From contig JAUSGH010000007.1 of the NCBI GenBank assembly GCA_030649055.1, forward strand, positions 1,854-65,853: DNA of 64,000 nucleotides, in the 5' to 3' direction. Below, in pieces: positions 4,438 to 60,687 of the stretch (its first letter is position 1; every line of letters starts with the position of its first letter). The translations under genes were made by a program, and so were the position numbers. Source of the stretch: a bacterium. GTDB lineage: Bacteria; Patescibacteriota; Minisyncoccia; UBA6257; JAUSGH01. The notes under the pieces are model-generated. The model searched no databases. It was given only the letters and a program-made list of their open reading frames with translations, and was not told where the DNA came from.

Positions 4438-5358
4438 CTATATACTCAATACCTTCTTAATGAGTCCCGGCACCTCATCCAAAATATCCGCCACCATGAC
4501 TCCCGCCGCACGAAGCGCCTTTACTTTTGACGCGTAACTCCCGCGGCCTTTGGAAACAATCGCGCCCGCGTGGCCGAGCACGGTTCCTTGCGGCAGGGTT
4601 TCCGTAAACTTTCCGGCGACAAGCGCGACAACAGGCTTCGTAAACTTTTTTTTGCGAATGAATTCGGCCGCAAGTTCTTCATAAGTTCCGCCAACCTCGC
4701 CGAAAAGCACCACCGCTTTGGTCTCCGGATCTTTTTCAAAAAGCTCCAACAGGTCGGCAAAGTCCGAACCGATAATCGCATCTCCTCCGATTCCGATGAC
4801 AGTGCTTTGTCCTAATTTTTCGCGCGAAAGCGTTGAAGAAATCTCCGCCGTCATTCCCCCGCTTTTTGAAATAACGCCGATATGGCCGGGCGTGAATACG
4901 TTTTTAATTTCGCCGCTTCCGATGCTTCCAATTTTCCCGAGTCCGGGTGAAATAATGCCGACCGACGACGGGCCGACGACGCGCACGCCGACACGACGCG
5001 CCGCCGCAACAATGTATGCCGCATCTTGTGCCGTCACATGCTCGGTCAGAATATCAATAAGCGGAATACCCGCGTCAATGGCTTCCAACGCGGCGTCTTT
5101 TACAAACGCAGCCGGCACCGTGATGAGCGAGGTGTTGATTTCGGGATGTTGTTGAAGCGCCTCAAACACGGCGTTATACACCGGAATTCCCTCCACGCTT
5201 TGCCCGCCCTTGCCCGGCGTTACTCCGGCAACAACCGCCGTGCCATAAGCCAGCATCTCCTTGCACGCGCGCGAACCCTCGTTGCCGGTTATTCCTTGTA
5301 CAAGCACACTCGTTTTTTTATCAATAAGTATTGCCATAGTTATTTTTTTCATTGTCAT
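4438..5358 (-). CDS. sucD: Succinyl-CoA synthetase alpha-subunit family protein (CoA-binding; could be citryl-CoA synthetase small subunit)
   Basis: 306 aa. Near-colinear with SucD: ILIDKKT.V.VQGITG, GVTPGKGG, SKSGGMT, GIGGD, and the phosphohistidine loop GHAGAIV. Confidence 0.85.
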   Translation of the reverse strand: MTMKKITMAILIDKKTSVLVQGITGNEGSRACKEMLAYGTAVVAGVTPGKGGQSVEGIPVYNAVFEALQQHPEINTSLITVPAAFVKDAALEAIDAGIPLIDILTEHVTAQDAAYIVAAARRVGVRVVGPSSVGIISPGLGKIGSIGSGEIKNVFTPGHIGVISKSGGMTAEISSTLSREKLGQSTVIGIGGDAIIGSDFADLLELFEKDPETKAVVLFGEVGGTYEELAAEFIRKKKFTKPVVALVAGKFTETLPQGTVLGHAGAIVSKGRGSYASKVKALRAAGVMVADILDEVPGLIKKVLSI

Positions 5359-5470
5359 CCTGAGTTCGCCAGCAGGCCGGTTGATTGATTATAAATAATA
5401 TATCCGAAGAGGTGCCCGCGGCCGACGAAGGATCTCTCGGAGATTCTTCGGCTCATCGCCTCAGAATGAC
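5354..5470. repeat. Palindromic repeat element, family B (GTCATYCTGAG ... GAAGGATCTC-GAGATTCTTCG ... TCAGAATGAC)
   Basis: Read directly. Terminal inverted repeats GTCATCCTGAG / CTCAGAATGAC. Internal palindrome GAAGGATCTCTCGGAGATTCTTCG. Related copies at 34274-34342 and 60624-60687. Confidence 0.6.
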
Positions 5471-5484
5471 ACTGTAGTCTTACT

Positions 5485-6594
5485 TTATTGTTTCGATGCT
5501 TTATTGCTTCGATACGCCAATGCTACGACGCGCTTCGCGCTCTCCGCCATTGATGTTTTTCCGTCAAACACAGTGAACCGATATCCTTCTTTTTTTGCGA
5601 CTTCTCGCAACATCCGGAACGCTTGCTGCCCCCGCGGACCGTCACGACGGATAACAATCGGAAATGTCGGCTTCGGTTTCACTTCGCGCAGCCCCTCAAT
5701 AAACCCAACCATGGTTTCGTAAATATCGGTGAAATTCGCCGTACCGCCGATGACCCACAGCCCCTTCAAGCCGTGGCGCGCGAGCACACGCTTTGTTAAA
5801 TCACGCACCACTTCCTTCGGCGGATTTCCGGAATATTCGGTATAGTTCGCCGGCCATCCGTTATATTTCAAGAGCGCGTCAATGTTTAAAAGCGACGCTC
5901 CGCCTCCCGAAGCCAAAATCGCGATGTCCCCATCCATATCAATAAACCTGCGTTCACCGGGTTTTATTTTTTCGTCATCCAAAACAACCTTCGCGTCCGC
6001 CGCAACAAACTTTCCGTCTGGGGTCTTCATCAGCGGATTAATTTCGGCAAGCAAGGCATATTCGCCGAAGAAACAATTCCATAAACTTTTGACAATCGGC
6101 ACGAGGCCGCCGACATCGGCAAACGGGATGCCGGCGCGGAGCAACGCGCTACGGATAAAAAATGGGTGCAATCCTCCGATGACGTCAACCGGAAACACCT
6201 CCGCTTTCTTTGTGCCTGTGCCGCCGGAAACGGTTGCGGCCAAAACCGGCGCGCGATGATCTGTGGAGTAACTGAAACTTATATAATATTCCGCCACTGC
6301 CGCAATTTTTTGCTCAACCAACACTTTTTTCACGCGCTCACCGCGCAGCGTTTTGGAGAGTAAATCGGCGACTGCCGTTTTTGCCGCGCGCTCATCATCG
6401 GCAAAAAGAATTCCGCCACTGCGCGCGCGATCGCCAAAAGTAACCTGCGCCTTCACCGCGTATGGGCCGGAAAACTTCGGCCCGACACCAGGACGGGAAA
6501 CAAGCATGCCCTCCGGCACCAAAATTCCATACTTTTTGAATAACTTTTTTCCTTCGTGTTCGAATAAATTCATAAGGTATTCCTTCGATTTCAC
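5485..6594 (-). CDS. sucC: Succinyl-CoA synthetase beta-subunit family ATP-grasp protein (could be citryl-CoA synthetase large subunit)
   Basis: 369 aa. N-terminal ATP-grasp (NL.E.EGK.LF..YGI.VP...) and C-terminal CoA-ligase domain (DGDIAILASGGGASLLNIDAL) as in SucC. Confidence 0.8.
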   Translation of the reverse strand: MKSKEYLMNLFEHEGKKLFKKYGILVPEGMLVSRPGVGPKFSGPYAVKAQVTFGDRARSGGILFADDERAAKTAVADLLSKTLRGERVKKVLVEQKIAAVAEYYISFSYSTDHRAPVLAATVSGGTGTKKAEVFPVDVIGGLHPFFIRSALLRAGIPFADVGGLVPIVKSLWNCFFGEYALLAEINPLMKTPDGKFVAADAKVVLDDEKIKPGERRFIDMDGDIAILASGGGASLLNIDALLKYNGWPANYTEYSGNPPKEVVRDLTKRVLARHGLKGLWVIGGTANFTDIYETMVGFIEGLREVKPKPTFPIVIRRDGPRGQQAFRMLREVAKKEGYRFTVFDGKTSMAESAKRVVALAYRSNKASKQ

Positions 6595-6641
6595 TCAGGA
6601 AATATTATTCGCTGAGTTTGTCGAAGCGATACATGCACGTT

Positions 6642-21907: not shown

Positions 21908-21976
21908 AGGTTCTGAATATAACCGCCAATTGACTAGAATAGTAACCCATCGCGCCTGAAAAAGCAATGCGGCGCG

Positions 21977-22110
21977 GTATACCCCGTGCTACAACTTCGA
22001 TCATCATATTGTTTTGTATTATGATGACGATTGCGTTTTATTTGGACATTTTGTGTATGCAAAACATCTTAATTATTAATAAGCAATCGAAGTTGTAGCA
22101 CGGGGTATAC
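21977..22110. repeat. Perfect 25-bp inverted repeat (GTATACCCCGTGCTACAACTTCGAT / ATCGAAGTTGTAGCACGGGGTATAC) flanking an 84-bp AT-rich spacer
   Basis: Read directly: arms at 21977-22001 and 22086-22110, in the divergent region between pseB and the + gene at 22281. Confidence 0.7.
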
Positions 22111-22160
22111 TTTTGAGCTGGGATTCAGTTATACTATAATAACTTCGCCGTACATATATG

Positions 22161-22279
22161 CCGGGTAGTGAAAGTGCGATCGCTACGCGACTACGGCAAG
22201 AGTCGAAATTAGTATAAACGCAACGCTTAAATCGTAACAATATTATACGTAAGTAACTCATCGCACTTCTACTACCCGG
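22161..22279. repeat. Perfect 20-bp inverted repeat (CCGGGTAGTGAAAGTGCGAT / ATCGCACTTCTACTACCCGG) flanking a 79-bp spacer; right arm ends 1 nt before the ATG at 22281
   Basis: Read directly: arms at 22161-22180 and 22260-22279. Confidence 0.7.
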
Positions 22280-22280
22280 T

Positions 22281-23807
22281 ATGAAAGGCTGTTTATTACT
22301 ACAACGACGGTTTGCAACCATCAGCCACGCGATTGCGCTTGCGCTGAAAGAAAAATACGGCATAACCGAATTCTGCGGCTACGTTTGCGTCCGCTCGGGT
22401 TTTGATTTCCTGAAATCCCAAAAAGACATCAACTACGGAACCTTACTGCTCGATGACGAACTTCAAAAAGATTACGTCAAAGAAAAACTTGATCCCGAGT
22501 ACCTCCACCACCTGGAAAAAGAATATGGCATCCCCAACCTGTGGCCGTACATTGCCTGCGACCGCGTCATCATGTTTAAACAACTGTTGCGCGAGTATCC
22601 GTACAACACGCCGATGTATACCCACGAAGAAATGTTGCGCATGCTCCAGGTGAAGGCGCGCGCGATCATTCATATGCTTGAGGAGGAAAAACCCGATTTC
22701 CTTTTCGCGAGCGTCGTCGGTTCCATGGGAGGAATGCTCCTCTATCACATCGCCAAAAAGAAAAACATCAAGGTTATTATTGCCGATATCGCCCGCATCG
22801 GCGAACTGTTTACGGTAAGCGATCATTACGCATATCACACATGGACTGAACAAATTTTTCAAGAACTAAAACGCACGGAACGACACAGCCCCCGTGAACA
22901 CGACGCGCAAACCTTCCTGAAAAATTTCCGGAAAGAGCCGGCGCCGTTCTTCGGAAAACTTTACGAAAAAGACCAGTTAGTTGACCGCCGTAGGAAGCTC
23001 CAATTTTTGAAACCTACTCATATATTCCGATCGCTCGCGTGGGTTTTACAGCTCACGATCGGCTATCTCAAAAATCCTCATCGCGACGACTATGAGGAAA
23101 TCAAACCCTGGCATTACATAATTGATCGGCTCAAAAACAAAGCGCGCCTACTCCGCGGCTTCCGCGATCTCTACAGTAATCCGGAACCGAATGAAGATTA
23201 TGCCTTTTTCCCGTTACAATATGAACCGGAAATTTCTATGCTGCTCTATGCTCCATTTTTTTCCGACCAATCGTACGTGATCCGACAAATCGCCCGCTCG
23301 CTTCCCGTCACATATAAACTTTATGTTAAGGACCATCCTTCAATGGTCGGATTCCGGACGAGAAGTTATTACAAGGAACTGCTGAAAATACCGAATGTCC
23401 GACTCATCAACCCTGTTATCAAAAGTTTCCCGTTAATCCAAAATTCAAAAATTGTGACAACAATTACGGGCAGTGCCGGCTGGGAAGCGGTATTGCTCAA
23501 AAAACCCGTCATCACGTTCGGTGATGTGTTTTACAACGCGTTAAGTACCGTGAAACACTGTCGGACTATTGACGAACTTCCTTATTTGATTAAAGAACAA
23601 CTCGAGTCAACGCGTTATAACGAACAAGAGCTGATCAATTACATTGCCGCCACGATGGAAGTTTCCGTTGAGGTGTCACTGCTCCGGCTTTGGGAACGGG
23701 AAATAGGAGATTTTGAAAAAGTGAAAAAAGGCATGGAGCCTGCGGCGGACTTGATTGCAAGAAGACTCGGCGTGAAGGCCGTACCGAGTGTTACCCCAAG
23801 AAATTAA
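22281..23807 (+). CDS. Capsule-polysaccharide-biosynthesis-family protein (KpsC/KpsS-like fold) candidate glycosyltransferase
   Basis: 508 aa. The C-terminal third (YVKDHPSMVGF...IVTTITGSAGWEAVLLKKPVITFGDVFY) resembles capsule-synthesis / CDP-glycerol-transferase-like retaining transferases. Sits next to the nonulosonic acid operon. Confidence 0.4.
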   Translation: MKGCLLLQRRFATISHAIALALKEKYGITEFCGYVCVRSGFDFLKSQKDINYGTLLLDDELQKDYVKEKLDPEYLHHLEKEYGIPNLWPYIACDRVIMFKQLLREYPYNTPMYTHEEMLRMLQVKARAIIHMLEEEKPDFLFASVVGSMGGMLLYHIAKKKNIKVIIADIARIGELFTVSDHYAYHTWTEQIFQELKRTERHSPREHDAQTFLKNFRKEPAPFFGKLYEKDQLVDRRRKLQFLKPTHIFRSLAWVLQLTIGYLKNPHRDDYEEIKPWHYIIDRLKNKARLLRGFRDLYSNPEPNEDYAFFPLQYEPEISMLLYAPFFSDQSYVIRQIARSLPVTYKLYVKDHPSMVGFRTRSYYKELLKIPNVRLINPVIKSFPLIQNSKIVTTITGSAGWEAVLLKKPVITFGDVFYNALSTVKHCRTIDELPYLIKEQLESTRYNEQELINYIAATMEVSVEVSLLRLWEREIGDFEKVKKGMEPAADLIARRLGVKAVPSVTPRN

Positions 23808-24483
23808 ACCGCGCGATGTGCCAAAGCGCGGCGACTCCGTCTTTCCAGCCGATCTTTTTTCCCTCCGCGTAACTGCGGCCCGCGTAAGAAACCGCGACTT
23901 CGTAAATGCGGAAGTGGTGCTTGGCAACGCGTGCGGTGAGCTCCACCTCAATACCGAATCGCCGCGATTTCAAACGCGGCGCGATTGCATCAACTACGTT
24001 TCGCGTAAACACTTTATATCCGACTTCCACATCGGAAAGGTTCAAGTTTGTGCATAGATTGGAAAAAAACGTAATAAAACGGTTGGCGAGATAATGATGA
24101 AAGTTGAAAATCCGGTGCGGCTTATTGCCTAAAAATCGCGTTCCGTACACGACATCAGCCAAACCGGAGCGTATTGGGGCGAGCAAATCCGGGTAGTCAT
24201 TTGGGTCATACTCCAAATCCGCGTCTTGGATAAGGACAATGTCGCCGCTCGCGTGTTCAAAGCCGGTTTTAACAGCGCCGCCCTTGCCGAAATTTTTCTC
24301 ATGAAAAATTACAACGATCTCCGGAATGCTTTTTAGAATTTCCCTCGTTTTGTCGGTTGAACCGTCATCAACAACGATGATTTCTTTTTCAATGTCCGCC
24401 AACGGAACTGCCTGAACGCGGCGAATAATTTCCGCGATGGTTTTTTCTTCGTTGTATGCCGGGATAATAACCGAGAGCTTCAT
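23791..24483 (-). CDS. GT2 polyprenyl-phosphate sugar synthase-like glycosyltransferase (DPM1/ArnC-like)
   Basis: 230 aa. LSVIIPAYNEE, IIVVDDGSTD, and the DXD motif IQDADLEYDP. Confidence 0.8.
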   Translation of the reverse strand: MKLSVIIPAYNEEKTIAEIIRRVQAVPLADIEKEIIVVDDGSTDKTREILKSIPEIVVIFHEKNFGKGGAVKTGFEHASGDIVLIQDADLEYDPNDYPDLLAPIRSGLADVVYGTRFLGNKPHRIFNFHHYLANRFITFFSNLCTNLNLSDVEVGYKVFTRNVVDAIAPRLKSRRFGIEVELTARVAKHHFRIYEVAVSYAGRSYAEGKKIGWKDGVAALWHIARFNFLG

Positions 24484-24491
24484 GAGAAAAT

Positions 24492-24677
24492 TTAGTTCCT
24501 GAGTTTATCGAAGGACAACCATAATGAGAAGTCCAAATTTCTAATATCTAATGTCTATTATTGTATCCCTTCGACTTCGCTCAGGGAATAAAGATCTTAG
24601 TTCCTGAGTTTATCGAAGGACAACCTTTTCGCTCAGGGAATAAAGATCTTAGTTCCTGAGTTTATCGAAGGACAACC
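24492..24677. repeat. Tandem array: three copies of 29-bp TTAGTTCCTGAGTTTATCGAAGGACAACC (24492, 24597, 24649), the last two inside 52-bp direct repeats with CGCTCAGGGAATAAAGATC
   Basis: Read directly. The CCTGAGTTTATCGAAGG core is the reverse complement of CCTTCGATAAACTCAGG found at 30134 and 58696. Family C of the dispersed elements. Confidence 0.7.
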
Positions 24678-24695
24678 TTAACACGATGCATGGTA

Positions 24696-26785: not shown

Positions 26786-27144
26786 TGTCATTCCGGGCTT
26801 GACCCGGAATCCAGAGGATCTATGAAATCGTTATATAAATCTCTCCATTGCGGATTTTGGCGCTCAATAAGCTGAAGTTTCCACACACGGTGCCATTGTT
26901 TAACTTGTTTCTCTCGGGCAAGCGCCGTTCGCACGTCTGACGTTTCTTCGTAATAGACAAGCATATGTACTTTGTAGCGTTTCGTGAATCCATCAATCGC
27001 ATCGCTTTTGTGCTGTCCGACGCGCTTTACGAGATCGTTCGTGACGCCCGCATAGAGCGTACCGTTCCGCTTACTCGCCATTATGTACACATAATATGCG
27101 TTCATTATTGCGGCGTACTGGATTCCCGCTTTCGCGGGAATGAC
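26786..27144. mobile_element. GIY-YIG nuclease gene bracketed by the two halves of a palindromic element (GTCATTCCGGGCTTGACCCGGAATCCAG ... CTGGATTCCCGCTTTCGCGGGAATGAC)
   Basis: Half-sites at 26786-26813 and 27116-27144. The same two halves occur contiguously, without an ORF, at 35049-35147 and 43395-43479. Confidence 0.65.
26788..27105 (-). CDS. GIY-YIG nuclease superfamily small protein (UPF0213-like)
   Basis: 105 aa. N-terminal YYVYIMASKRNGTLYAGVTNDL..R..QH motif. The C-terminal ...LDSGSSPE is encoded by the element terminus. Confidence 0.8.
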   Translation of the reverse strand: MNAYYVYIMASKRNGTLYAGVTNDLVKRVGQHKSDAIDGFTKRYKVHMLVYYEETSDVRTALAREKQVKQWHRVWKLQLIERQNPQWRDLYNDFIDPLDSGSSPE

Positions 27145-27177
27145 AAAAAAATATATACAGAAGACACAAAACCAAAT

Positions 27178-30133: not shown

Positions 30134-30205
30134 CCCTTCGATAAACTCAGGGACTATTATTTCCTGAGCAAAGGTCCGATGAACATCGGACCGCAATCGA
30201 AGGAA
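30134..30205. repeat. Palindromic element, family C (CCCTTCGATAAACTCAGGG ... TCCTGAG-N27-TCGAAGGA)
   Basis: Read directly, between two minus-strand membrane protein genes. Confidence 0.6.
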
Positions 30206-31978: not shown

Positions 31979-32043
31979 AACCGGCGTCCTGCGCCATTCG
32001 CATTATTTACCCTCATTCGCATTACAGTTCGACAGTGCTCACT

Positions 32044-34263: not shown

Positions 34264-34273
34264 ATGCGTGCCG

Positions 34274-34342
34274 TCATTCTGAGCAGGACGAAGAATCTCT
34301 AAGAGATCCTTCGGCCCCGTTTAGCGGGGCCTCATGATGACC
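34274..34342. repeat. Palindromic element, family B (GTCATTCTGAGCAGGACGAAGAATCTC ... GAGATCCTTCGG ... CTCATGATGAC); its terminus supplies the last codons and stop of the GT2 gene
   Basis: Read directly. Confidence 0.55.
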
Positions 34343-35042: not shown

Positions 35043-35048
35043 GGTATG

Positions 35049-35147
35049 TGTCATTCCGGGCTTGACCCGGAATCCAGTACACCTAACTTTATAATCATAT
35101 TCTGGATTCCCGCTGGAGTTTATCCGCCTTCGGCGGGCGGGAATGAC
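35049..35147. repeat. Family A palindromic element, ORF-less copy (GTCATTCCGGGCTTGACCCGGAATCCAG - 24 bp - CTGGATTCCCGCTGGAGTTTATCCGCCTTCGGCGGGCGGGAATGAC)
   Basis: Both halves match the termini flanking the GIY-YIG gene at 26786-27144. Confidence 0.65.
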
Positions 35148-43394: not shown

Positions 43395-43479
43395 GTCATT
43401 CCGGACTCGATCCGGAATCCAGTTTGCCAAGTCCTGGATTCCCGCTGGAGTTTACCCGCCTTTGGCGGGCGGGAATGAC
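43395..43479. repeat. Family A palindromic element, ORF-less copy (GTCATTCCGGACTCGATCCGGAATCCAG ... CTGGATTCCCGCTGGAGTTTACCCGCCTTTGGCGGGCGGGAATGAC)
   Basis: Read directly. Confidence 0.65.
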
Positions 43480-43482: not shown

Positions 43483-44607
43483 CTAAAAACTTTCCATAAA
43501 TTTAATAATCTGCAGCGCGCGGTTTTCCCAGCTATATTCCCGAACATGGTTCTGCGCGGCAAGCGCAATCTGGTGCGCCGCATGCTCATTGTGAAGTACG
43601 GCAGCAATTCCACCGGCAAGCGCCAAAGAGTCATCGGGGTGGACAAAAATTGCCTGCGACTCATTAAGCACCTCGCGAATCGACGGGAGATCAGAGGCGA
43701 CAATCGGCGTACCGGAGGCCATATATTCAAAAAGCTTCATCGGAGAAGTATAGCGCGCGCCGATGGCTGTTTTGCCACTGGTGGGAAGCACGAGTACGTC
43801 CGCCGCCTTGAGCCACAACGGAATCTCGGAGGAACTCCGCCATCCCAGCACGTGCAGGTTTGCCGAAGGGAACCGCCGATTAAATGCCTCCGTGTCAGCC
43901 AGTGTTCCGCCGACAACATACACATGTGTATCGGGTGGAAGTTCTGCCGCCGCGCGAGCTAAGACATCGGCTCCTTTCCAATCATACAAATGGCCGGTAT
44001 ACGCGACAATTTTTTTATCAGCCGGGAGATGCAGTTTCGCGCGACATTCATCGCGACTCGCCGTAATATAAAATTTCTTCATATCAACCGCGTCGCGCGC
44101 GAGTAAAATCTTTTGCTCCGGAACGCCAAAGGCGATAAGCGCCTTTCGCAACCCGTCGCTAATCACAACAATTCCTTTTGCGCGCCGCCAGGCGCGACGG
44201 TGCAGCCAGTTCTCACGCTCCGGCAACGAATGGATTTCGTAAAAAACCGGCACACGCGTCAACAATCCCGCCGCGACGGCAAGGTCGCGCGTATAATACG
44301 CGTCATATGTATTGAAAAGCAGATGCCACCACAAGGCCTTTATAAAACTCATGCTCTCTAATACAAATCCGAGTTGTTTCAAAAAAGGCAACGCTAAAAA
44401 ATCCGCAACAAAAATCTTACGGATTGAAAAGTTGCGCGGGACACCGTAGAAAACAAAAGGGTCGTCTTTGAGCATATTCAGGCGCCGCGGAACCACAAGC
44501 GTCACAGCATTTCCTGCAGCCGCAAACGCCGCACACATATGCACCACCTGGATGCCGTGCGCCTTTTCGGTCGGAAGGCGGATATTTGCAAGATAAGCGA
44601 TTTTCAT
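43483..44607 (-). CDS. GT4 family glycosyltransferase
   Basis: GT4 C-terminal motif (VGG....E.......LKAADVLVLPT...E.......EYMASGTPIVASD). Start set at MKIAYLANI, giving an ATGA-type 4-nt overlap with asnB. Confidence 0.8.
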   Translation of the reverse strand: MKIAYLANIRLPTEKAHGIQVVHMCAAFAAAGNAVTLVVPRRLNMLKDDPFVFYGVPRNFSIRKIFVADFLALPFLKQLGFVLESMSFIKALWWHLLFNTYDAYYTRDLAVAAGLLTRVPVFYEIHSLPERENWLHRRAWRRAKGIVVISDGLRKALIAFGVPEQKILLARDAVDMKKFYITASRDECRAKLHLPADKKIVAYTGHLYDWKGADVLARAAAELPPDTHVYVVGGTLADTEAFNRRFPSANLHVLGWRSSSEIPLWLKAADVLVLPTSGKTAIGARYTSPMKLFEYMASGTPIVASDLPSIREVLNESQAIFVHPDDSLALAGGIAAVLHNEHAAHQIALAAQNHVREYSWENRALQIIKFMESF

Positions 44608-46463
44608 GATGTTGGTTGCCGGCGGATAAATTGTTCGTACCATAACTCCCACATAACAATCGCCCAAATCATATTAAGATTATACCGCTCTCCCGTAACA
44701 TGCGCCTCAAACATCCGCCGGACTTCTTCACGATTGAAAAACTCTTGCGGAATGTTCGCGAGGATATCTCGAACCCTATCTTTCAGCTCGCCGCGCATCC
44801 ACTTTGCCATAGGCGTAAACCAGCCGCGCTTCGGCTCACGCGCCACATGCGGCGGCAGATAGTCCGCGATCGCATCGCGCCAAATGCGCTTGCCCTGGAA
44901 ATGCCTTCCGGTATTCCCTAAAAGCGAAAACTTCCATCGCGTGGGAATCTTCGCGGCAAGCTCCGCGAGCCGATAATCCAGCATAGGTACTCGACACTCA
45001 AGTCCATGACCCATCGTCATTTTATCCGACCGCATCAGCGACTCGTCCACCAGCCAGCTCTGCCGATCAATGTTCATGAATACTTTCTCAAAATCGCGCG
45101 GTTGCGCCGATGCAAAATACCGCTCGCTAAAATGCCTCGTGATTGTCTCGGGGTCGCTGACGTCACGCGAAAGCACGCCGACTACATTATTCTCTTTTTC
45201 CGCGAGGAACGCGACCACGCGCGACGCATCCGCCGGAAGTCGCAGCTTTTGCGCGTTGTTTTTCCCGAAACAACCCGCAAGCGCGGAGTGGAACGGCAGC
45301 CGCTGGAACGCGGTAATCGCGCGGCTGTACCAATACCGCGGATAACCGCCGAAGAGCTCGTCTCCCCCGTCGCCGCCCAAAACCACCGCCACGTTTTCCT
45401 TCGCCATTTTTGACAACAGATACATCGCGCCCGCGGTCGGGTTAAAATTTGGCTCATCCAGGTGCCACGCGATACGTTCCAAATTATCACCGATATCTTT
45501 TGCCCCGATCATAAGCTCGTGATGCTCTGCTCCGTAGTGCGCCGCGGTCATCCGCGCGAGGCGAACATCAGCATTAAATTTATCCCGCTGCACATCAACG
45601 TCAAACCCCACGGAAAATGTCTGCGCTTTGCCCGCGGCGGCAACAACCGAGCCCAACACCGCTGTGGAATCCATGCCTCCCGAAAGAAACACACCGACGG
45701 GTCTGTCGGAAATAAGCTGACGCTTTACAGAGTCGTCAAACAACCGCCGGATCTCACGCCGTGCTTCATCACGCGAGACAACATCCGTAAAATCCGTCAC
45801 CTCCCAATACTTTTCGATCGTCAGCTTTCCGTTTGTGAATACGGCGCGGCTCGCCGCGGGAAGCTTGAAAATATTTTGAAACATCGTAAGCGGCTCCGGC
45901 ACATAGTAAAGATGAAAATAAAAATTCATCGCCTCCTTGGAAACCGCCCGAGCGATATCATGCGCAAGAATCGCCTTAATCTCCGATGAAAAAATAAATC
46001 GCGCCTGCCCTGAGCTCGTCGAAGGGTCAAAGTAGTAGTACAGCGGCTTCACGCCCGCGTGATCGCGCGCGAGAAACAGTTCTTGCTTCGCCGCGTCCCA
46101 AATGGCAAACGCAAAAATGCCGTTGAACTTTTTGACGCACTCTTTCCCCCACTTCGCGTACGCCACCAAAATTACCTCGGTGTCGCTCGCCGTGCGGAAC
46201 GGATAACCGGACTTTAACTCTTCTTTCAACTCACGGTAATTGTAAATCTCACCGTTAAAAACAATAACCAGCCGCCCATCCGCGCTTTTCATCGGCTGGC
46301 TGGCGGCAGAACTCAAATCAATAATGCTCAAGCGGTCGTGGCCGAGCGAAATTCCATCTGCAACAAAAACATCGGTCCCATCGGGTCCCCGATGAACTGT
46401 GGCGGCGTTCATGCTCTTAATGAGCGCCTCGTCTTTGAAATTAAATCCATTGATGCTACACAC
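44604..46463 (-). CDS. asnB: Asparagine synthase (glutamine-hydrolysing) family amidotransferase (AsnB/WbpS-like)
   Basis: 619 aa. N-terminal MCSINGF Ntn-Cys start, PP-loop SGGMDS. Confidence 0.85.
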   Translation of the reverse strand: MCSINGFNFKDEALIKSMNAATVHRGPDGTDVFVADGISLGHDRLSIIDLSSAASQPMKSADGRLVIVFNGEIYNYRELKEELKSGYPFRTASDTEVILVAYAKWGKECVKKFNGIFAFAIWDAAKQELFLARDHAGVKPLYYYFDPSTSSGQARFIFSSEIKAILAHDIARAVSKEAMNFYFHLYYVPEPLTMFQNIFKLPAASRAVFTNGKLTIEKYWEVTDFTDVVSRDEARREIRRLFDDSVKRQLISDRPVGVFLSGGMDSTAVLGSVVAAAGKAQTFSVGFDVDVQRDKFNADVRLARMTAAHYGAEHHELMIGAKDIGDNLERIAWHLDEPNFNPTAGAMYLLSKMAKENVAVVLGGDGGDELFGGYPRYWYSRAITAFQRLPFHSALAGCFGKNNAQKLRLPADASRVVAFLAEKENNVVGVLSRDVSDPETITRHFSERYFASAQPRDFEKVFMNIDRQSWLVDESLMRSDKMTMGHGLECRVPMLDYRLAELAAKIPTRWKFSLLGNTGRHFQGKRIWRDAIADYLPPHVAREPKRGWFTPMAKWMRGELKDRVRDILANIPQEFFNREEVRRMFEAHVTGERYNLNMIWAIVMWELWYEQFIRRQPTS

Positions 46464-51423: not shown

Positions 51424-52284
51424 CTAAATAGGCTTCCTTTTACCATCAATTTTTTTCTTCTCCATCCTCTCTAGTTGTTTCACCTCTTTCTTCACTTCTT
51501 TAATGTGTTTTTCTGTTGGCAGATACTCTGGCGTCGTCCCACCAATTTCCTTAATGGTCTGCCGGACTTTTCCGCCCACCATAAAATGTGTTTGGGCGGC
51601 CAAACTTTCTCCTTGTATGTTATCCTTTTTTAATTTCTCATCGGTTTGAGTAATACGAAACAAATTAGCCGCCAACTCGGTAGAACCAGCCCTATCTAAT
51701 AATTCTCCCTTGTTTATTCCCTTTCTACGTTCAATCTCCGATAATGGCATCCCATAAAGACCTCTATATCCAGCATCATTAAACAACCCGAACTTGCTCA
51801 CCCCAGCTTGCCTTGCCGTCTTGAAAAGTTTCTTGTTGTAGTCAGATACTTCGCTGCGAATGAATAATCTCTTTTCGGCATCGGGTAACTGTTCAAAAAC
51901 TTCCTGCCTTCTTGTCTGAATAGCAAAATAGGTCTGAGCCATCGCTATTTCGATTTTTTTAGGGTCTCCATTCTGAGCAATAAGATAGCAGGCGTAGCGA
52001 TCGAGTTTATAATTGACCACTTCTCGAACCGTATTTGAGCCAATATTGACCATTTTACTGAGCTTAGTAAAATGGTTATCCACATCCTGACCGCTGTTAA
52101 TACAAGCTCTAGCCGCTCTCGCAATCACATCCTCTGCATTTTGCCATTTTTCATAACCCAAAATAGGCAACAACTCCCGCGCATCCCAATACTCAACCCC
52201 ATTCTCGTCAACATTTTTGATGCCCTCAAAATCCTTATGAATGCTTGGCGGCGCTATTTCATTGGTCATAAGTTTATTTTGCAC
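51424..52284 (-). CDS. dinD: DNA-damage-inducible protein D homolog (DinD family)
   Basis: 286 aa, colinear with E. coli DinD: RYACYLIAQNGDP, AQTYFAIQTRRQE, EKRLFIR.E, GSTELAANLFR.TQTDEKLK, VGGKVRQTI.E.GGT.PE.LPT. GC ~43%, well below its neighbours. Confidence 0.8.
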   Translation of the reverse strand: MQNKLMTNEIAPPSIHKDFEGIKNVDENGVEYWDARELLPILGYEKWQNAEDVIARAARACINSGQDVDNHFTKLSKMVNIGSNTVREVVNYKLDRYACYLIAQNGDPKKIEIAMAQTYFAIQTRRQEVFEQLPDAEKRLFIRSEVSDYNKKLFKTARQAGVSKFGLFNDAGYRGLYGMPLSEIERRKGINKGELLDRAGSTELAANLFRITQTDEKLKKDNIQGESLAAQTHFMVGGKVRQTIKEIGGTTPEYLPTEKHIKEVKKEVKQLERMEKKKIDGKRKPI

Positions 52285-52304
52285 ATTAAAAAGAAAATTT
52301 GCAA

Positions 52305-52346
52305 TGTATAAAAGGATCGGCCGCGGAGAGATTCTCTCCGCGGCCG
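52305..52346 (-). terminator. GC-rich hairpin (CGGCCGCGGAGAGA / TCTCTCCGCGGCCG) with adjacent U-tract; terminator candidate after the RHH gene
   Basis: Read directly: arms at 52318-52331 and 52333-52346. AT-rich tract 52307-52316. Confidence 0.45.
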
Positions 52347-52354
52347 TACGCTAC

Positions 52355-52567
52355 TTACGTCACGATGACGAGCTCCTTCAGGATGGACTTGGCATCCCGC
52401 GAAGAGATGACGAGACGCTTGCCCTCGTCCTTCGCCTTCTTCGCTTCGTTGAGAAGCGCGATCGCCATCCGGAAGACTGCTGCCTTGGACTTCTTTCCGA
52501 ACGCTACGCGGAGCTCTTCGAGCAGAGCGTCCACCTTGTCATCCACCTGCATCGTAAACATCTTCAT
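52355..52567 (-). CDS. Small ribbon-helix-helix-like DNA-binding protein (CopG/Arc family candidate)
   Basis: 70 aa from MKMFTMQVDDKVDALLEELR. Beta-strand then two helices. Good RBS GGAAGGAG 8 nt upstream. The longer ORF to 52834 is a GC-rich read-through artefact. Confidence 0.45.
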   Translation of the reverse strand: MKMFTMQVDDKVDALLEELRVAFGKKSKAAVFRMAIALLNEAKKAKDEGKRLVISSRDAKSILKELVIVT

Positions 52568-52635
52568 CGTATTCTCCTTCCAATACTGGCCCGGACAATA
52601 TCCGCCGCAACAAAGTGCTGCGAGCGGCCCCGTAG

Positions 52636-53160
52636 CTACAGGTTTCCCTTCACGCGCCGACTCTCCAACCGCCGCCTGAACCATCCGCGCAGCCCGAGGA
52701 TATCCAGGATCGGAAACGCGATGGTGAGGATGAGGTCCGCCACCGCGAGCGACGGCCTCGGGATTCCCCACGCAATGTGGTGCTTGACGCCCCGCTCGCG
52801 GCAGAGCCACCACACGCGCGGGAAATGAAGCCACGTAGAGATGACGACGAGCATCAACCGTTCACGTCTCGCCACATCCAACGCGTAGTCTAATTGCCCC
52901 ATGGTCTCGTACGCCTCGCGCACTACGACGAGATTGCTGATGCCAAGCTCCTCCGCCGCCGCAACGTAGATGTCCTCCTCGTGCCGCTCTCCGGCAACCT
53001 GGAGGTTGCTCAAGATAAGCACGGGTGCCTGTCCGTACCGTGGCTGGAGTCGCTTGGCCAGCACCATACTCCTGTACCAGTCCTGCCACGTCCTCGGCCC
53101 GACACGTCCTTTCGCGCAAGGCCCCTTGGTCAACGGAAGAAGAACAAAATTCTCTTTCAA
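52636..53160 (-). CDS. DUF218 (YdcF/ElyC/SanA-like) domain protein with C-terminal hydrophobic segment
   Basis: 174 aa. APVLILSNLQVAGE...EDIYVAAAEELGIS..NLVVVREAYETMGQLDYA...RLMLVVISTWLHFPRV matches the DUF218 core pattern. Confidence 0.5.
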   Translation of the reverse strand: MKENFVLLPLTKGPCAKGRVGPRTWQDWYRSMVLAKRLQPRYGQAPVLILSNLQVAGERHEEDIYVAAAEELGISNLVVVREAYETMGQLDYALDVARRERLMLVVISTWLHFPRVWWLCRERGVKHHIAWGIPRPSLAVADLILTIAFPILDILGLRGWFRRRLESRRVKGNL

Positions 53161-53266
53161 CGCGCACCTCCTTTTGTTGGCTTGATTCCTCTACAAGTGC
53201 TGACAAGAGGATAGCATTTTAGAATAACGGGGTCAACATCTTTGCCATATGACATCAAAATGAAAC

Positions 53267-53298
53267 GGACCGTACACCTCCGAAGAGATGTACGGTCC
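53267..53298 (-). terminator. Hairpin (GGACCGTACA-N12-TGTACGGTCC) downstream of the Ubl gene
   Basis: Read directly; followed on the minus strand by GTTTCATTTTGAT. Confidence 0.35.
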
Positions 53299-53322
53299 GT
53301 GCTGGTTCTGACTTCCGGCTCG

Positions 53323-53571
53323 CTATGAGCCCCGCGGGCGCTCCGACACGGCGACGACGGGCTTGTCCTTCGCCTCCAGCGCGTCCTTCGGACCCACGTG
53401 GGTCGTGAGCTTGGCCGGCTTGCCGTTCATCGTGAGGTCCATGTTCTTCACGTCGATCCCCGCGGCCTCGCACACCTCCGCGACAGAGGCGCCGCTCTCC
53501 TCGACCTCGACGTCCTTCGTGGTGCTCTTGCCTTGCGTCGGTACCACCTTCACTTTGATCTTCATCGTCAT
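53323..53571 (-). CDS. Small beta-grasp ubiquitin-like (MoaD/ThiS-like) protein, C-terminus ...ERPRGS (no terminal GG)
   Basis: 82 aa. MKIKVKVVP....K.VEVEE..SVAEV....GID.....L..NGKPA pattern of Ubl/ThiS-fold proteins. Directly upstream is an E1-like gene. Confidence 0.45.
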   Translation of the reverse strand: MTMKIKVKVVPTQGKSTTKDVEVEESGASVAEVCEAAGIDVKNMDLTMNGKPAKLTTHVGPKDALEAKDKPVVAVSERPRGS

Positions 53572-53636
53572 CTCCTTCCGATAATGAAACGGAACTACCG
53601 GTCTCCGATGCGTTTCCTCCTTTCATTCTCACAGAC

Positions 53637-54299
53637 CTAGTCAATCATCTCCATGACGCCGGTCAGCGCCTTGTGATGGCGCTTCTTCTTTCCATGCTGC
53701 CACCAATATACCAGATCCGCGGCAACTGCGGAAGCAGCACTCATTGATGCGTACACGATGCCATGTCTCCCGCACATCGGATGCGCGGTTTCCTTGGTCG
53801 TATACGCAAGATGATGTTCGTAGTACGCAATGTCGTCCGGATCGCACGGAGCGATAGCAAAAACCCAGACGAGCTCCTCGGCAGTCCGCGTGTCGATCAA
53901 AATGTCCACCCTGGGTTGCATCTTGACGTTACGCCAAACCGCCTGCCGAGCTTCCATGGTATCCACACAGCACACCACTGCGTCGCGCAGCGGCTCGTTC
54001 TCGTAGAACTGCCGACGGGCATCAATGACGACACCCGACGCTTCCAGAACGATGTCGCGCAACGCTTCCACCTTCGGCCGGCCAAGGTCACACGGCCGGT
54101 AGACGGACATCGGAATGTTGTGCGATTCAACGTAGTCGTCGTCGATGACCGTGAGTTTCGTTACTCCCATCTTGGCCAAGGTGACGGCAACGTATCCGCC
54201 GACGGCACCCGCGCCGATGATGGTTACGCTTCTCGCAGTCATCGCGTTGAAGAGGTTGTGCTGTCCCGAGAGATTCATCGTCGGTTCTACCACGGTCAC
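53637..54299 (-). CDS. ThiF/MoeB/HesA-family E1-like adenylyltransferase (minimal, ~220 aa)
   Basis: VTIIGAGAVGGYVAVTLAKMGV..LTVIDDDYVE.HN nucleotide-binding motif, GRPKVEAL; candidate Cys in HPMCGRHG. Confidence 0.75.
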   Translation of the reverse strand: MTVVEPTMNLSGQHNLFNAMTARSVTIIGAGAVGGYVAVTLAKMGVTKLTVIDDDYVESHNIPMSVYRPCDLGRPKVEALRDIVLEASGVVIDARRQFYENEPLRDAVVCCVDTMEARQAVWRNVKMQPRVDILIDTRTAEELVWVFAIAPCDPDDIAYYEHHLAYTTKETAHPMCGRHGIVYASMSAASAVAADLVYWWQHGKKKRHHKALTGVMEMID

Positions 54300-55771
54300 C
54301 TCCTTTCGTCAGGTTCGGCCAGCCACTCCTCCAACGGATGCAGTGTGGTCTCCGGCGTATAGGTGTTAAGCCAACGCATGACGACGAGCGCCGCCTCCGC
54401 GAAACGGAACTCACTCATGTACTTCGCGATGGCAACCGTCGCATTTCCGAAGCAAGCCAAACTAATCCGGCTGACGTGCGGATGATGGTGCCCAAGCGAA
54501 TGCCTCGGCGCCTCGCTCCACACTCCGATCTTGCCGTTCGGGTCCAGACGGATCGTAAACGGTCCCAGATTGTACCGGCGGCCGTTGTCTTCCAGGATGA
54601 TGTCCGTGGTCACAATGTGCACGCCACTATCGACAATGCGCACTGCCGCCACGCCATCCATCTTCGTAATCTCGTCAAGTTCCATCGGAAGACGCTTGTG
54701 CAAGCCACGGACGAATTCCGAATCCTGCATCGTCTTCACGCGGAGGGTGAACAGCTGTTGTTTGCGCGACTCATCCGCCAATTTATCCTCCGCGTCCTGA
54801 ATATCGGCGGACGTCACCTGCATCGCCTCGAGAAGAACAGCAAGCACCTTCTGATCGTGCAGCTTGTCTGCCAGCTCGTTTTCCTCGCTCCGAATCAAGG
54901 CATTAATGCGTTCCAGCGTTGTCTGAAGCTCTCCCAGAATCGCAGCGGCTTGGATAATGACAAACCCCGAAAAGTCCTCGGCGTTCGTCTCCACGATCGG
55001 TTCCGTTTTTCTGTCGGACGCTTTCACGAGATCACGATACATGCAGCCGAGCAGCTTGCGGAAGATCGTCTCACGCGCCGCCTCGCCGTGAAAAGCGGTA
55101 TGCGTAAGACAGAGCTGATAATAGTTGGATCCGAGCACCTGGAAGATTGGGGTTACGCCATCAATGATGAGCCGTCCCCGTCCGCGAGTAGGCATGTTCA
55201 CAAGACGCGTCTGCCCGTCCTCCCACACCTGAACTCCGAAAAGCGTTTCCACCACCATGCCGGAATTGTAAACACCGGGCGGACGGGCCTGGCAGAAGAG
55301 ATGCACCGTTCCAGCTTTCTCCGAGAACGGCGGGTTGCTAATGGTGGTACTGTAACAGTAGACGAAGTGCAGACCGGCAAAACGCGAGAGCGCCTCCACC
55401 TGCCGCATGTCGGACTCCACCATCGGCTTCGCTTGGATGAACCCGCCGGACGTAGGTGTTTCGTCCACGTTGAGCAGCTCGGCATTCGGCTCTTTTGCCA
55501 CGAGCAACGCGAATGATGCGACATCAATCTCGCAGGATTCGAGCACCAACTCACGTCCCTGCTCGCGGCCGCGCCGCTGCAACATCTCCACCGCTTCGTT
55601 GCTGGCCGCCTCACCGGTGAAGGTGAGAAGGTCCACGATGATGTCAAAGTCATTGGAAACCACCGTCACGCGCTTCGTCGCAGTAGCCGTCGGCAGCTCA
55701 ACCCCGAGCCACCGCATGATGAGCACCGGCACCGCGAAGGCGTACCCGGATTCAAACAGTGGGCTTGTCAT
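54296..55771 (-). CDS. Large protein of unknown function with a C-terminal E2/UBC-like active-site motif (HPHVSRISLAC); candidate E2-like conjugating enzyme fusion
   Basis: 491 aa. C-terminal GHHHPHVSRISLACFGNAT resembles the UBC HPN(V/I)...G.ICL catalytic loop. Start codon overlaps the E1-like gene by 4 nt. The antisense 392-aa ORF is Arg-rich junk. Confidence 0.35.
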   Translation of the reverse strand: MTSPLFESGYAFAVPVLIMRWLGVELPTATATKRVTVVSNDFDIIVDLLTFTGEAASNEAVEMLQRRGREQGRELVLESCEIDVASFALLVAKEPNAELLNVDETPTSGGFIQAKPMVESDMRQVEALSRFAGLHFVYCYSTTISNPPFSEKAGTVHLFCQARPPGVYNSGMVVETLFGVQVWEDGQTRLVNMPTRGRGRLIIDGVTPIFQVLGSNYYQLCLTHTAFHGEAARETIFRKLLGCMYRDLVKASDRKTEPIVETNAEDFSGFVIIQAAAILGELQTTLERINALIRSEENELADKLHDQKVLAVLLEAMQVTSADIQDAEDKLADESRKQQLFTLRVKTMQDSEFVRGLHKRLPMELDEITKMDGVAAVRIVDSGVHIVTTDIILEDNGRRYNLGPFTIRLDPNGKIGVWSEAPRHSLGHHHPHVSRISLACFGNATVAIAKYMSEFRFAEAALVVMRWLNTYTPETTLHPLEEWLAEPDERR

Positions 55772-58695: not shown

Positions 58696-58753
58696 CCTTC
58701 GATAAACTCAGGCAATAAATTTTAACATTAGTTCCTGAGCCGGTCGAAGGACT
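58696..58753. repeat. Family C palindromic element (CCTTCGATAAACTCAGG - 15 bp - TTAGTTCCTGAGCCGGTCGAAGGAC)
   Basis: Read directly. Confidence 0.6.
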
Positions 58754-58755: not shown

Positions 58756-59496
<741 letters not shown>

Positions 59497-59505
59497 AGTG
59501 GTATT

Positions 59506-59540
59506 GGTCCTATTGGACTTATAAGTCCTATTAATCCTAT
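59506..59540. promoter_or_regulatory. Second copy of the GGTCCTAT / GGACTTATAAGTCC motif, just upstream of the rmlA-like start
   Basis: Perfect 14-bp palindrome GGACTTATAAGTCC at 59515-59528, flanked by GGTCCTAT-type repeats. Same arrangement as 3203-3239. Confidence 0.3.
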
Positions 59541-60550
59541 ACAAGCTTCTTCGCAACCGCCTTCACCCAATCACCATTCTTTATATACCATTCTACGGTT
59601 TTTTGCAAGCCATCTTCAAAATTATGCGCCGGCTTATAGCCCAGTTCGCTCGCGGCCTTGGTGTAGTCAATAGCATAACGGAGATCGTGGCCCAGGCGGT
59701 CATTCACGTACGTGATGAGCGACTCGTCCTTCCCTACATGCCGCAAAATGGTTTTTACCACATCAATATTCGCCCGCTCCGCCCCTCCGCCGATGCAATA
59801 CGTCTCACCGACCCGTCCCTTAGTAATGATCAGCTCAACGCCACGGGAATGATCCTCCACATGCACCCAATCGCGTACATTCACGCCCCTACCATACACC
59901 GGCAAAGGTTTCCCTTGAAGCGCGTAAGTAATCATCAGCGGGATAAGTTTTTCCGGCGTCTGATACGGTCCATAGTTGTTACTGCAATTAGAAATAGTGA
60001 GCGGCAATCCGTAGGTATGCGCGTACGCGCGCGCGAGCATGTCAGATGCCGCCTTGGACGCGGCGTAGGGGCTGCTTGGTTGGTATGGTGATTGTTCATT
60101 AAACTTGCGCGTATCATCCAACGCCAAACTGCCGAACACCTCATCGGTTGAAACATGGTGAAAACGCGCTACCTTTGCCTCAAGCGCCGCCTGAAGCAGC
60201 ACTTGCGTACCCAACACATTCGTCACCACGAAGGGTGCCGCATCCGCAATGGAGCGGTCCACGTGGCTTTCCGCGGCAAAGTGCACCACGGTGTCCGCGC
60301 CTTTCATCGCCTCGCGGACAGTCGCGGGGTCGCAAATATCGCCATGTATAAATGCGTAGTTCGGATGCTTGGCGATCGCCTCAAGATTTTCCAAATGTCC
60401 GGCGTACGTCAGTTTATCAAGATTGACAATCTTGTCCTCGGGGTGGTGCTTCATCCAGTAATGGATGAAGTTGCTCCCGATAAACCCTGCACCACCCGTA
60501 ACAAGTATTTTCTTTTCTTTTTTTGTCGCCATCAACGTGTTCATAAACAC
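59537..60550 (-). CDS. rmlB: dTDP-glucose 4,6-dehydratase
   Basis: 337 aa. ILVTGGAGFIGSNF, HVSTDEVFG, YAASKAASD; colinear with RmlB. Confidence 0.9.
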   Translation of the reverse strand: MFMNTLMATKKEKKILVTGGAGFIGSNFIHYWMKHHPEDKIVNLDKLTYAGHLENLEAIAKHPNYAFIHGDICDPATVREAMKGADTVVHFAAESHVDRSIADAAPFVVTNVLGTQVLLQAALEAKVARFHHVSTDEVFGSLALDDTRKFNEQSPYQPSSPYAASKAASDMLARAYAHTYGLPLTISNCSNNYGPYQTPEKLIPLMITYALQGKPLPVYGRGVNVRDWVHVEDHSRGVELIITKGRVGETYCIGGGAERANIDVVKTILRHVGKDESLITYVNDRLGHDLRYAIDYTKAASELGYKPAHNFEDGLQKTVEWYIKNGDWVKAVAKKLV

Positions 60551-60623
60551 AAGTATGACCTCATACGTGGTGCGGGGTAAATCCAGCTCCGCCGGTAACT
60601 AAAAGTTTCATATGGTTTTTGTT

Positions 60624-60687
60624 GTCATTCTGAGTACAGCGAAGGATCTCCGGAGATTCTTCCTCGCTTATGGCGAGTCAGAATGAC
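60624..60687. repeat. Family B palindromic element (GTCATTCTGAGTACAGCGAAGGATCTCCGGAGATTCTTCCTCGCTTATGGCGAGTCAGAATGAC)
   Basis: Read directly. Confidence 0.6.

Follow-up and report, generated by a model that had tools for sequence, protein, structure and literature searches.

A stretch of 64,000 nt from a Patescibacteriota genome (GenBank assembly GCA_030649055.1, contig JAUSGH010000007.1, positions 1,854 to 65,853; hereafter the window) carries a family of short DNA palindromes built from CTGAG and CGAAG half-sites. The repeat family is real, and it is akin to the NTS/SRM-Ssn and CGTC-REP systems of other bacteria, yet it stands outside their formal sequence definitions. The elements are probably non-autonomous DNA hairpin repeats resembling repetitive extragenic palindromes (REPs), of the superfamily that comprises CGTC-REPs, dRS3/NTS and SRM, and are probably recognised by small GIY-YIG single-strand nucleases. 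The copies belong to one family, their stem covaries, each hairpin type goes with its own clade of GIY-YIG genes, and insertions are polymorphic among close relatives. These small nuclease genes, the candidate partners, were absent from the first-pass annotation, which had been made from the letters of the window alone.

Repeat unit and copies in the window

The shared unit is the half-site YCTGAG-N4-6-CGAAGR, of which about 18 are found in nine places in the window. On one strand, a small loop can be closed by C-G, T-A, G.A, A.G and G-C pairs; on the complementary strand, mismatched pyrimidines stand where the first has the tandem G.A/A.G. A covariance model (R1) was trained on 112 external hairpins only, each lying within 200 nt of a UPF0213-like gene. 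In its training alignment, 111 of the 112 sequences had a pair at columns 9-29, where four pair types were seen, and 109 had one at columns 10-28. The covariation score of the closing stem was 0.328 versus 0.179 in shuffles, none of 500 shuffles scoring as high, and slid registers gave 0.11-0.16. Applied to the window, R1 found 13 sites with E <0.05, and 17 sites were recognisable altogether. Every site listed in the first-pass annotation was recovered, so that its copies are indeed related on alignment. The inverted pair at 6582-6627 and the half-site at 46008-46026 come in addition to that list.

Half-sites occur alone, as inverted pairs 11-21 nt apart, or within compound palindromes of 64-117 nt with GTCAT...ATGAC ends. 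The copies are the following (bits, R1 score; z, folding relative to shuffles).

5354-5470: compound palindrome of 117 nt, GTCATCCTGAG...CGAAGGATCTC / GAGATTCTTCG...CTCAGAATGAC, in the spacer of the sucC-like and sucD genes and 17 nt upstream of where sucD starts (5337); R1 match 5436-5474 (-), 18.4 bits; branched-hairpin fold, z -2.1 (+) and -2.9 (-).
6582-6627: inverted pair, CCTTCGATTTCACTCAGG, 11 nt, GCTGAGTTTGTCGAAGC, between polysaccharide-synthesis and sucC-like genes; 16.0 and 12.3 bits; z -3.2 on both strands.
24492-24520 (+): solitary 29-nt copy, TTAGTTCCTGAGTTTATCGAAGGACAACC, 9 nt upstream of the start of the GT2 gene 23791-24483 (-); 18.0 bits.
24564-24625: inverted pair, CCCTTCGACTTCGCTCAGGG, loop, TCCTGAGTTTATCGAAGGA; 23.8 and 18.4 bits; z -3.6 (+) and -2.9 (-).
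24576-24679 (+): two perfect tandem copies of a 52-nt unit (period 52, 2.0 copies and 100% identity by Tandem Repeats Finder); this duplication creates a third 29-nt copy at 24649-24677 (R1 match 24646-24680, 18.9 bits).
30134-30205: inverted pair upstream of position 30115, the probable ATG of a PMT_2 glycosyltransferase gene, the second half-site with a nested 29-nt insert that has its own hairpin, CCTGAG-CAAAGGTCCGATGAACATCGGACCGCAA-TCGAAGG; 17.4 and 8.1 bits; z -5.4 on both strands.
32026-32071: degenerate half-site (32028-32041, -; 12.1 bits) and half-site CCCTGAGCTTGTCGAAGGG (32053-32071, +), the latter classed as solitary and preceded by GTCAT at 32044-32048; top-scoring half-site of the window (R1 match 32045-32079, 32.3 bits, E 8e-7).
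34273-34341: compound palindrome of 69 nt, GTCATTCTGAG-CAGGA-CGAAGAATCTC / GAGATCCTTCG-(nested hairpin)-CTCATGATGAC; 22.3 bits; three-way-junction fold, z -3.4 (+) and -5.5 (-).
46008-46026 (+): solitary half-site CCCTGAGCTCGTCGAAGGG inside the asnB-like gene 44604-46463 (-); 25.0 bits, E 9.5e-5.
58696-58750: inverted pair, CCTTCGATAAACTCAGG, 21 nt, CCTGAGCCGGTCGAAGG, between NTP-transferase and PMT_2 genes; 21.9 and 16.6 bits; z -3.8 on both strands.
60624-60687: compound palindrome of 64 nt, GTCATTCTGAG-TACAG-CGAAGGATCTCC / GGAGATTCTTCC-(nested hairpin)-GTCAGAATGAC, between GT2 and dehydratase genes; 15.3 and 13.1 bits; z -4.0 on both strands.

The palindromic copies described in the first-pass annotation are thus all present, and in numbers above chance: GTCATTCTGAG with at most one mismatch has 8 matches in the window for 0.64 expected, CCTGAGTTTATCGAAGG with at most three mismatches has 8 for 0.14 expected, and in neither case did any of 100 shuffles contain as many. 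Its tandem array was also correctly described, the three 29-nt copies at 24492, 24597 and 24649 being identical and two of them lying within the perfect 52-nt units. On either strand, pairs and compound elements folded much better than shuffles (z -2.1 to -5.5). No Rfam family matched anywhere in the window at gathering score, and repeat sequences of the CTGAG/CGAAG family were not found in the literature searched.

Compound palindromes are laid out as GTCAT-YCTGAG-x-CGAAGRATCTC, a short loop, then GAGATYCTTCG-x-CTCAGRATGAC, where x may hold nested hairpins. The stem ATTCTGAG/CGAAGAAT holds the tandem G.A, that is, two mismatches, and the tail is CTC, not CCA. In the long palindromes the hairpin follows (C/T)GTCAT, the tag being CGTC at 34272 only and TGTC at the others, and external copies next to genes have GTCAY or GTTCGY 5' of the hairpin. 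This 5' tag is variable, since the 29-nt window copies carry TTAGT in its place. At solitary half-sites, the G.A-bearing strand was always the + strand, whose GC skew is uniformly negative across the window (1-64000; -0.08 to -0.13, about -0.09); with only 3-4 independent sites, no conclusion on strand or replication bias is drawn.

Association with small GIY-YIG genes in other genomes

In Neisseria, NTS repeats (CGTCATTCCCGCGMAVGCGGGAATCYRG) flank ssnA, and related SRM hairpins flank it in many bacteria (Chenal et al., Nat Commun 2025, PMC11893778). On single-stranded DNA (ssDNA), the ssnA product, a single-domain GIY-YIG protein of about 94 amino acids, attaches to the hairpin of one strand and cleaves upstream of it; it is inactive on double-stranded DNA and on RNA, and its action modulates natural transformation in Neisseria (PMC11893778). 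The published SRM pattern is HGTCWYN(0-2)YYVSBRHN(0-5)WNVSBRGN(0-2)RNCYNB; SRM and NTS are 20-50-nt hairpins with an orienting, non-palindromic 5' GTC... flank, and ssnA-type genes belong to cd10448 (PMC11893778).

The exact 17-mer core of the CTGAG/CGAAG repeat was scanned in species-representative genomes, and the figures that follow concern the matches listed. Chance alone would give about 70 matches in 596 Gb, so the number of matches is by itself uninformative, and the evidence lies in the non-random flanks. These prolong the stem with covariation, for example gtcatCC...GGatgac and accgcCC...GGgcggt. Listed matches came from Bacteroidota, Chloroflexota, Patescibacteria, Planctomycetota, Ignavibacteria, Cloacimonadota and others. 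With the 17-mer core and GTCAY-tagged forms in many phyla, the repeat proved, as the first-pass annotation had supposed, to be a family and not a peculiarity of one locus.

At no fewer than four of the listed loci, a GIY-YIG gene lies at most about 130 nt from the 17-mer. Two of these, L150 (two genes) and L158, have the gene flanked on both sides. In L156, from Saccharibacteria, a member of the candidate phyla radiation (CPR), the exact 17-mer flanks a GIY-YIG gene, and in L127 the gene is some 600 nt away. The proteins near the 17-mer are UPF0213-like, with BH0048 as best solved relative (E 2e-14); they are 32% identical to the GIY-YIG protein of the window described below, and the clade is 32-49% identical to the Ssn-like set.

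The association was then measured around 80 UPF0213-like genes from metagenome contigs. The strict motif YCTGAG-N3-8-CGAAGR was found within 250 nt upstream at 41 of the 80 loci, downstream at 43 and on both sides at 33. Its density was 4.7 per kb in the 100 nt next to the gene, compared with 0.0-0.2 per kb at distances above 500 nt. Most commonly, the upstream copy is on the same strand as the gene and the downstream copy on the opposite one. When any complementary closing pair and loop insertions were allowed, 73 of the 80 loci had a copy, 51 of them on both sides. Enrichment of 7-mers in the same flanks, which presupposes no motif, put GTCGAAG (60 of the 80 loci), TCGAAGG (54) and CCTGAGC (50) at the top. 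Some of the forms are those of the window: the exact half-site of the long palindromes, GTCATTCTGAG-N5-CGAAGAAT, flanks a UPF0213-like gene in L266, and GTCATCCTGAG...CGAAGGATG forms flank such genes in L150, L246, L247 and L281.

The two clades of GIY-YIG genes differ in the hairpins found within 260 nt.

UPF0213-like clade (metagenome contigs), 80 loci: CTGAG/CGAAG hairpin at 72, SRM pattern at 0.
Ssn-like clade (relatives of the window protein, IMG/VR), 48 loci: CTGAG/CGAAG hairpin at 2, both spurious with long loops; SRM pattern at 23.

Peptides encoded by the repeat arms at protein termini were of NTS type versus CTGAG type in 26 versus 1 cases in the Ssn-like set, and in 0 versus 11 in the UPF0213-like set. 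Hairpin counts and arm-encoded peptides split alike, so two nuclease clades pair with two hairpin types. The association is not general to all small GIY-YIG genes, as 13 loci of distant UPF0213-like relatives in viral contigs (40-48% identity) had neither hairpin type. It must moreover be sought from the side of the gene: TCCTGAG-N4-5-TCGAAGGA occurs in at least 120 stretches of viral contigs, no GIY-YIG gene was nearby in the 120 examined, and random copies of the repeat cannot show the link.

In other genomes the hairpin unit also forms arrays. A Bacteroidota contig has five 24-nt units in tandem (L125, 2470-2582), and longer units of about 63 nt in Cloacimonadota and about 110 nt in a metagenome contig are likewise repeated (L150, 3630-3790 and 5078-5668; L247). 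In several CPR genomes the 17-mer tips longer hairpins placed between an A-run and a T-run (L130 3714, L136 3169, L153 2807, L185 4567). These look like bidirectional terminators and may be cases of exaptation.

Sibling palindromes and the GIY-YIG cassette of the window

A third, related palindrome type, GTCATTCCGGG..., falls outside the motif of the first-pass annotation, though inside the span given there, and occurs three times.

26787-27144 (-): arms GTCATTCCGGGCTTGACCCGGAATCCAG and CTGGATTCCCGCTTTCGCGGGAATGAC; the loop holds an open reading frame (ORF) of 105 amino acids, GIY-YIG, Ssn-like, at 26788-27105 (-).
35050-35147: empty copy with the same arms, 24-nt loop and no ORF; fold z -4.9 (+) and -6.7 (-).
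43395-43479: second empty copy; fold z -5.2 (+) and -5.5 (-).

The first arm of 43395-43479 shows compensatory changes, CCGGA...TCCGG versus CCGGG...CCCGG. Sibling palindromes and the long CTGAG palindromes share one architecture: GTCAT, hairpin, central stem, hairpin, ATGAC. The ORF is the only GIY-YIG gene of the window (Pfam GIY-YIG, E 2.8e-18), and the C-terminus of its product, LDSGSSPE, is encoded by a palindrome arm. Its upstream arm is a near-canonical NTS. The published SRM pattern has a single match in the window, at 27118-27145 (-), in the arm beside the start of this gene (0.2 expected in shuffles), and we therefore regard the cassette as an ordinary member of the NTS/Ssn system.

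Presence and absence at orthologous junctions

Candidatus Harrisonbacteria and other Parcubacteria have SucD proteins that share 84-88% identity with that of the window; the source is therefore a CPR genome, assembled from a metagenome. No other strain of it was found in the collections searched, where SucD, the GIY-YIG protein and one flanking protein each come from a single contig. The sucC-sucD junction was compared among the relatives.

Window: spacer of 147 nt, with the 117-nt compound palindrome.
L323 (SucD 87% identical to that of the window): spacer of 6 nt, empty.
L324 (Harrisonbacteria; SucD 85%): spacer seen in part, with a shorter form of the window element inside which the contig ends.
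L322 (SucD 84%): spacer of 70 nt, with a different, degenerate CCTTCGA...CTCAAGG element.

The comparison of orthologous spacers, suggested as a check in the first-pass annotation, thus found the element absent, present or replaced. Such variation among close relatives speaks for insertion and not for conserved regulation. In L324, a GIY-YIG cassette also separates the citrate-synthase-like and Wzy genes, where the window has an empty junction. The arms of that cassette are GTCATTGCGA...GAAGCAATCTC and GAGATTGCTTCG...CTCGCAATGAC, and its protein shares 47% identity with that of the window. An internal tandem duplication of 131 nt (L324, 2762-3023) disrupts the reading frame of this GIY-YIG gene, and GTATC-rich strings adjoin its cassette. 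With R1, no match with E up to 0.5 was found in L322 and L323 (24.5 kb), versus the 13 sites at E <0.05 in the 64-kb window. Short-read contigs end inside repeats in the source sample (L001, Logan; near 24492-24520) and in the relative L324 (1-70). The repeats thus break assemblies, which is indirect evidence of multiple copies.

The first-pass annotation had proposed that the palindromes could be MITEs (miniature transposable elements with inverted repeats), classically deletion derivatives of insertion sequences moved in trans by a DDE or a tyrosine (RAYT, IS200/IS605) transposase. The terminal inverted repeats GTCAT...ATGAC, the small size, the intergenic dispersal and the presence/absence polymorphism would suit such elements, and the NTS-ssnA-NTS arrangement has itself been likened to an insertion sequence (PMC11893778). 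However, no target-site duplication was visible at six long palindromes (5354, 34273, 60624, 26787, 35050, 43395), a Pfam scan of about 60 window ORFs brought up neither a transposase nor a RAYT domain, the elements lack a GTAG tag, and full-length copies enclose a GIY-YIG nuclease gene, not a transposase gene. What stands of the proposal is the mobile, non-autonomous behaviour, seen in the junction polymorphism and the recent tandem duplication; classical MITEs are a very improbable explanation.

Gene context and effects on transcripts

Almost all genes of the window serve sugar or polysaccharide biosynthesis, and 47 of the 59 long ORFs are on the minus strand. Only 7.6% of the window lies outside long ORFs, and even with ORF calls that are over-long, 6 of the 9 repeat places are found there (P = 1.3e-5); 6-7 of the 9 count as intergenic. 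The exact placement between genes reported in the first-pass annotation therefore holds for most places, and fails at two. The element at 32026-32071 overlaps the 3' end of the GT2 ORF 32048-33013 (-), for which the repeat encodes the final eight codons, NPSTSSGY, and the stop. The half-site at 46008-46026 lies in frame in the asnB-like gene and encodes PSTSSG, about six residues in a loop of the glutamine-amidotransferase domain, exactly where the homologues 7ylz and 1ct9 of the PDB have a gap of 5-6 residues. Donation of a stop codon at the 34332 gene was rightly described: the stop of the GT2 ORF 34332-35054 (-), at 34332-34334, is inside the ATGAC end of the element 34273-34341.

Does the family act at the RNA level, by stabilising mRNA, by attenuation or termination, or by masking starts in transcripts of the glycan cluster, its link with nuclease genes being incidental? 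The compound elements fold strongly (z -3 to -6.7), elements separate genes that run in the same direction, in many cases with 9-20 nt to a start codon, and the 17-mer tips the terminator-like hairpins of the CPR genomes mentioned above. E. coli REPs stabilise mRNA as a side effect. Roles hypothesised for REPs are also given by Di Nocera et al. (BMC Genomics 2013, PMC3733652). Termination, one of the roles put forward in the first-pass annotation, found no support: none of the 19 terminator-like sites between 24000 and 36000 (20.5 expected from shuffles) overlaps an element, and no T-run directly follows any element. Elements occur in both orientations relative to transcription, and the G.A-bearing strand of solitary copies is antisense to the mRNA. 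The sucC-sucD junction is empty in the close relative L323, copies lie in frame inside genes, no Rfam family matches, and the association with nuclease genes is strong and differs between GIY-YIG clades. We consider a primary role in RNA unlikely; a secondary RNA-level effect of the elements is possible.

All copies seen in the source genome lie within one 64-kb glycan-biosynthesis cluster, as would be expected of operators or other protein-binding sites that control this locus. That the core and its tagged forms occur in unrelated contexts in many phyla, that orthologous junctions show no conservation, and that arrays arose by recent tandem duplication together leave this idea with hardly any credit.

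Other features of the window

Several further features of the window were recorded.

3197-3253, 59501-59542 and 61561-61639: short palindromic repeats at gene starts, of the TATAGGTCCTATAAGACTTATAAGTCC type and GTATCAAGAAGTGAGTAT; the strings adjoining the L324 GIY-YIG cassette resemble them.
3245-6594: a set conserved within a sugar-biosynthesis cluster of Parcubacteria genomes (also in L322, L323 and L324), in which sucD is accompanied by a sucC-like gene whose product has a citrate-binding domain, by a 23S-rRNA-IVS protein and by a C-terminal fragment of citrate synthase (244 aa); it resembles citryl-CoA synthetase/lyase.
21977-22110: element of 134 nt with perfect 25-nt terminal inverted repeats, GTATACCCCGTGCTACAACTTCGAT, MITE-like and unrelated to the CTGAG family.
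22158-22282: second inverted repeat, 23 nt, likewise MITE-like and unrelated to that family; both are in the divergent intergenic region 21968-22280.
51424-55771: amid the glycan genes, a group that encodes a Bro-N domain protein and a ThiF-like E1 enzyme and includes several ORFs with no Pfam match; it may represent a foreign or defence island.

Discussion

The window family resembles NTS and SRM in being made of short imperfect hairpins with a 5' GTC(AT) tag, in many copies, mostly intergenic and near surface-related genes, and, for the copies of other genomes, in often flanking, in inverted orientation on both sides, a single-domain GIY-YIG gene of about 100 codons; the window itself holds one such cassette with a near-canonical NTS arm. 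It differs in its CTGAG...CGAAG stem with tandem G.A, where NTS has ATTCCCGCG...CGCGGGAAT, and in that the CTGAG type elsewhere partners the UPF0213-like clade, not the Ssn-like one. The main text of PMC11893778 contains none of the terms UPF0213, cd10456, YhbQ, CTGAG, Bacteroid- and Chloroflex-.

CGTC-tagged REPs have been described as families CGTC-1 to -4, including dRS3 of Neisseria and RPE-4 and RPE-6 of Rickettsia, and defined by a stem that begins with AT and has 8-9 pairs and no more than one mismatch, a 4-5-nt loop and a CCA-like tail (PMC3733652). No dedicated enzyme for them was found in PMC3733652. The sibling palindromes at 26787, 35050 and 43395 fit this definition (TGTC, AT, 8-pair stem, 5-nt loop, CCAG). 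The CTGAG/CGAAG repeats share with CGTC-REPs the CGTC or TGTC tag, the AT and the stem-loop, the formation of dimers, the spread over several phyla, the occasional intragenic copy and the want of a transposase. However, they have two built-in mismatches, other tails and a GIY-YIG gene as partner, and they are absent from PMC3733652, where repeats with more than one mismatch were discarded.

With REP/BIME-RAYT systems, the likeness lies in intergenic hairpins, inverted dimers, a presumed recognition as ssDNA, insertion without target-site duplication and a partner gene flanked by the repeat; the differences are that element ends lack GTAG, that the window has no RAYT gene, and that the partner has the GIY-YIG and not the HUH/Y1 fold. 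The in-frame insertion at 46008-46026, and the copy that supplies the C-terminus of a glycosyltransferase, recall the RPE of Rickettsia, but the insertions measure about 18 nt versus 100-150 nt and their sequence is unrelated.

A working scheme can be proposed. The unit is a hairpin with 2-5 covarying closing pairs, followed by C-G, T-A, tandem G.A/A.G and G-C and a loop of 4-6 nt, often with a 5' GTCAY. Full-length cassettes have a small GIY-YIG nuclease gene in the central loop of a GTCAT...ATGAC palindrome. By analogy with Ssn, the cognate single-domain enzyme would bind the hairpin on one strand of ssDNA and cut beside it; for the CTGAG type this enzyme would most likely be UPF0213-like and encoded elsewhere in the genome. 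The repeats spread into the intergenic spacers of the surface-glycan cluster and, now and then, in frame into genes, where they can donate stop codons and C-terminal residues, and perhaps supply recombination or breakage points. Cleavage, the manner of spread and any benefit to the host are what we infer here.

Several points weigh against the nuclease interpretation. Solitary half-sites fold no better than shuffles with nearest-neighbour DNA parameters (z about 0), so that the folding check proposed in the first-pass annotation succeeded for pairs and compound elements but not for them; these parameters give tandem G.A little credit, and for this reason the structure of solitary half-sites rests on covariation. 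In alignment A2, the invariant CTGAG and CGAAG columns come from the search pattern itself. Copy counts for the source genome cover the 64-kb window, in which no GIY-YIG gene has CTGAG-type arms, the only one having NTS-type arms. No CTGAG/CGAAG element fits the published SRM pattern, and cleavage of ssDNA by the UPF0213-like clade is an extrapolation from Ssn.

With these points taken into account, recognition of the repeats by small GIY-YIG single-strand nucleases remains the probable explanation. The narrower proposal, that the CTGAG...CGAAG hairpins are the recognition sites of a second, UPF0213-like (BH0048/YhbQ-type) clade of single-domain GIY-YIG proteins, is on balance the one we favour, with less assurance. 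Such a partnership would parallel that of NTS and Ssn with a different specificity, would extend over CPR, Bacteroidota, Chloroflexota, Planctomycetota, Cloacimonadota and other phyla, and would be the source of the spurious PSTSSG and PEPVEG tails that are very common in predicted proteins.

A nuclease partner is thus proposed for a very widespread repeat, and the Ssn/NTS paradigm would extend to a second nuclease clade and to CPR bacteria. If this is true, UPF0213-like proteins would cut ssDNA site-specifically, with a hairpin specificity that is new and of interest for ssDNA tools. The repeats also explain several annotation effects: assemblies break at them, ORFs are artefactually extended, C-termini are altered, and one enzyme has an in-frame insertion. 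Finally, their concentration in a surface-glycan cluster parallels the clusters of NTS at surface genes of Neisseria, and by that analogy it may bear on recombination or transformation at surface loci.

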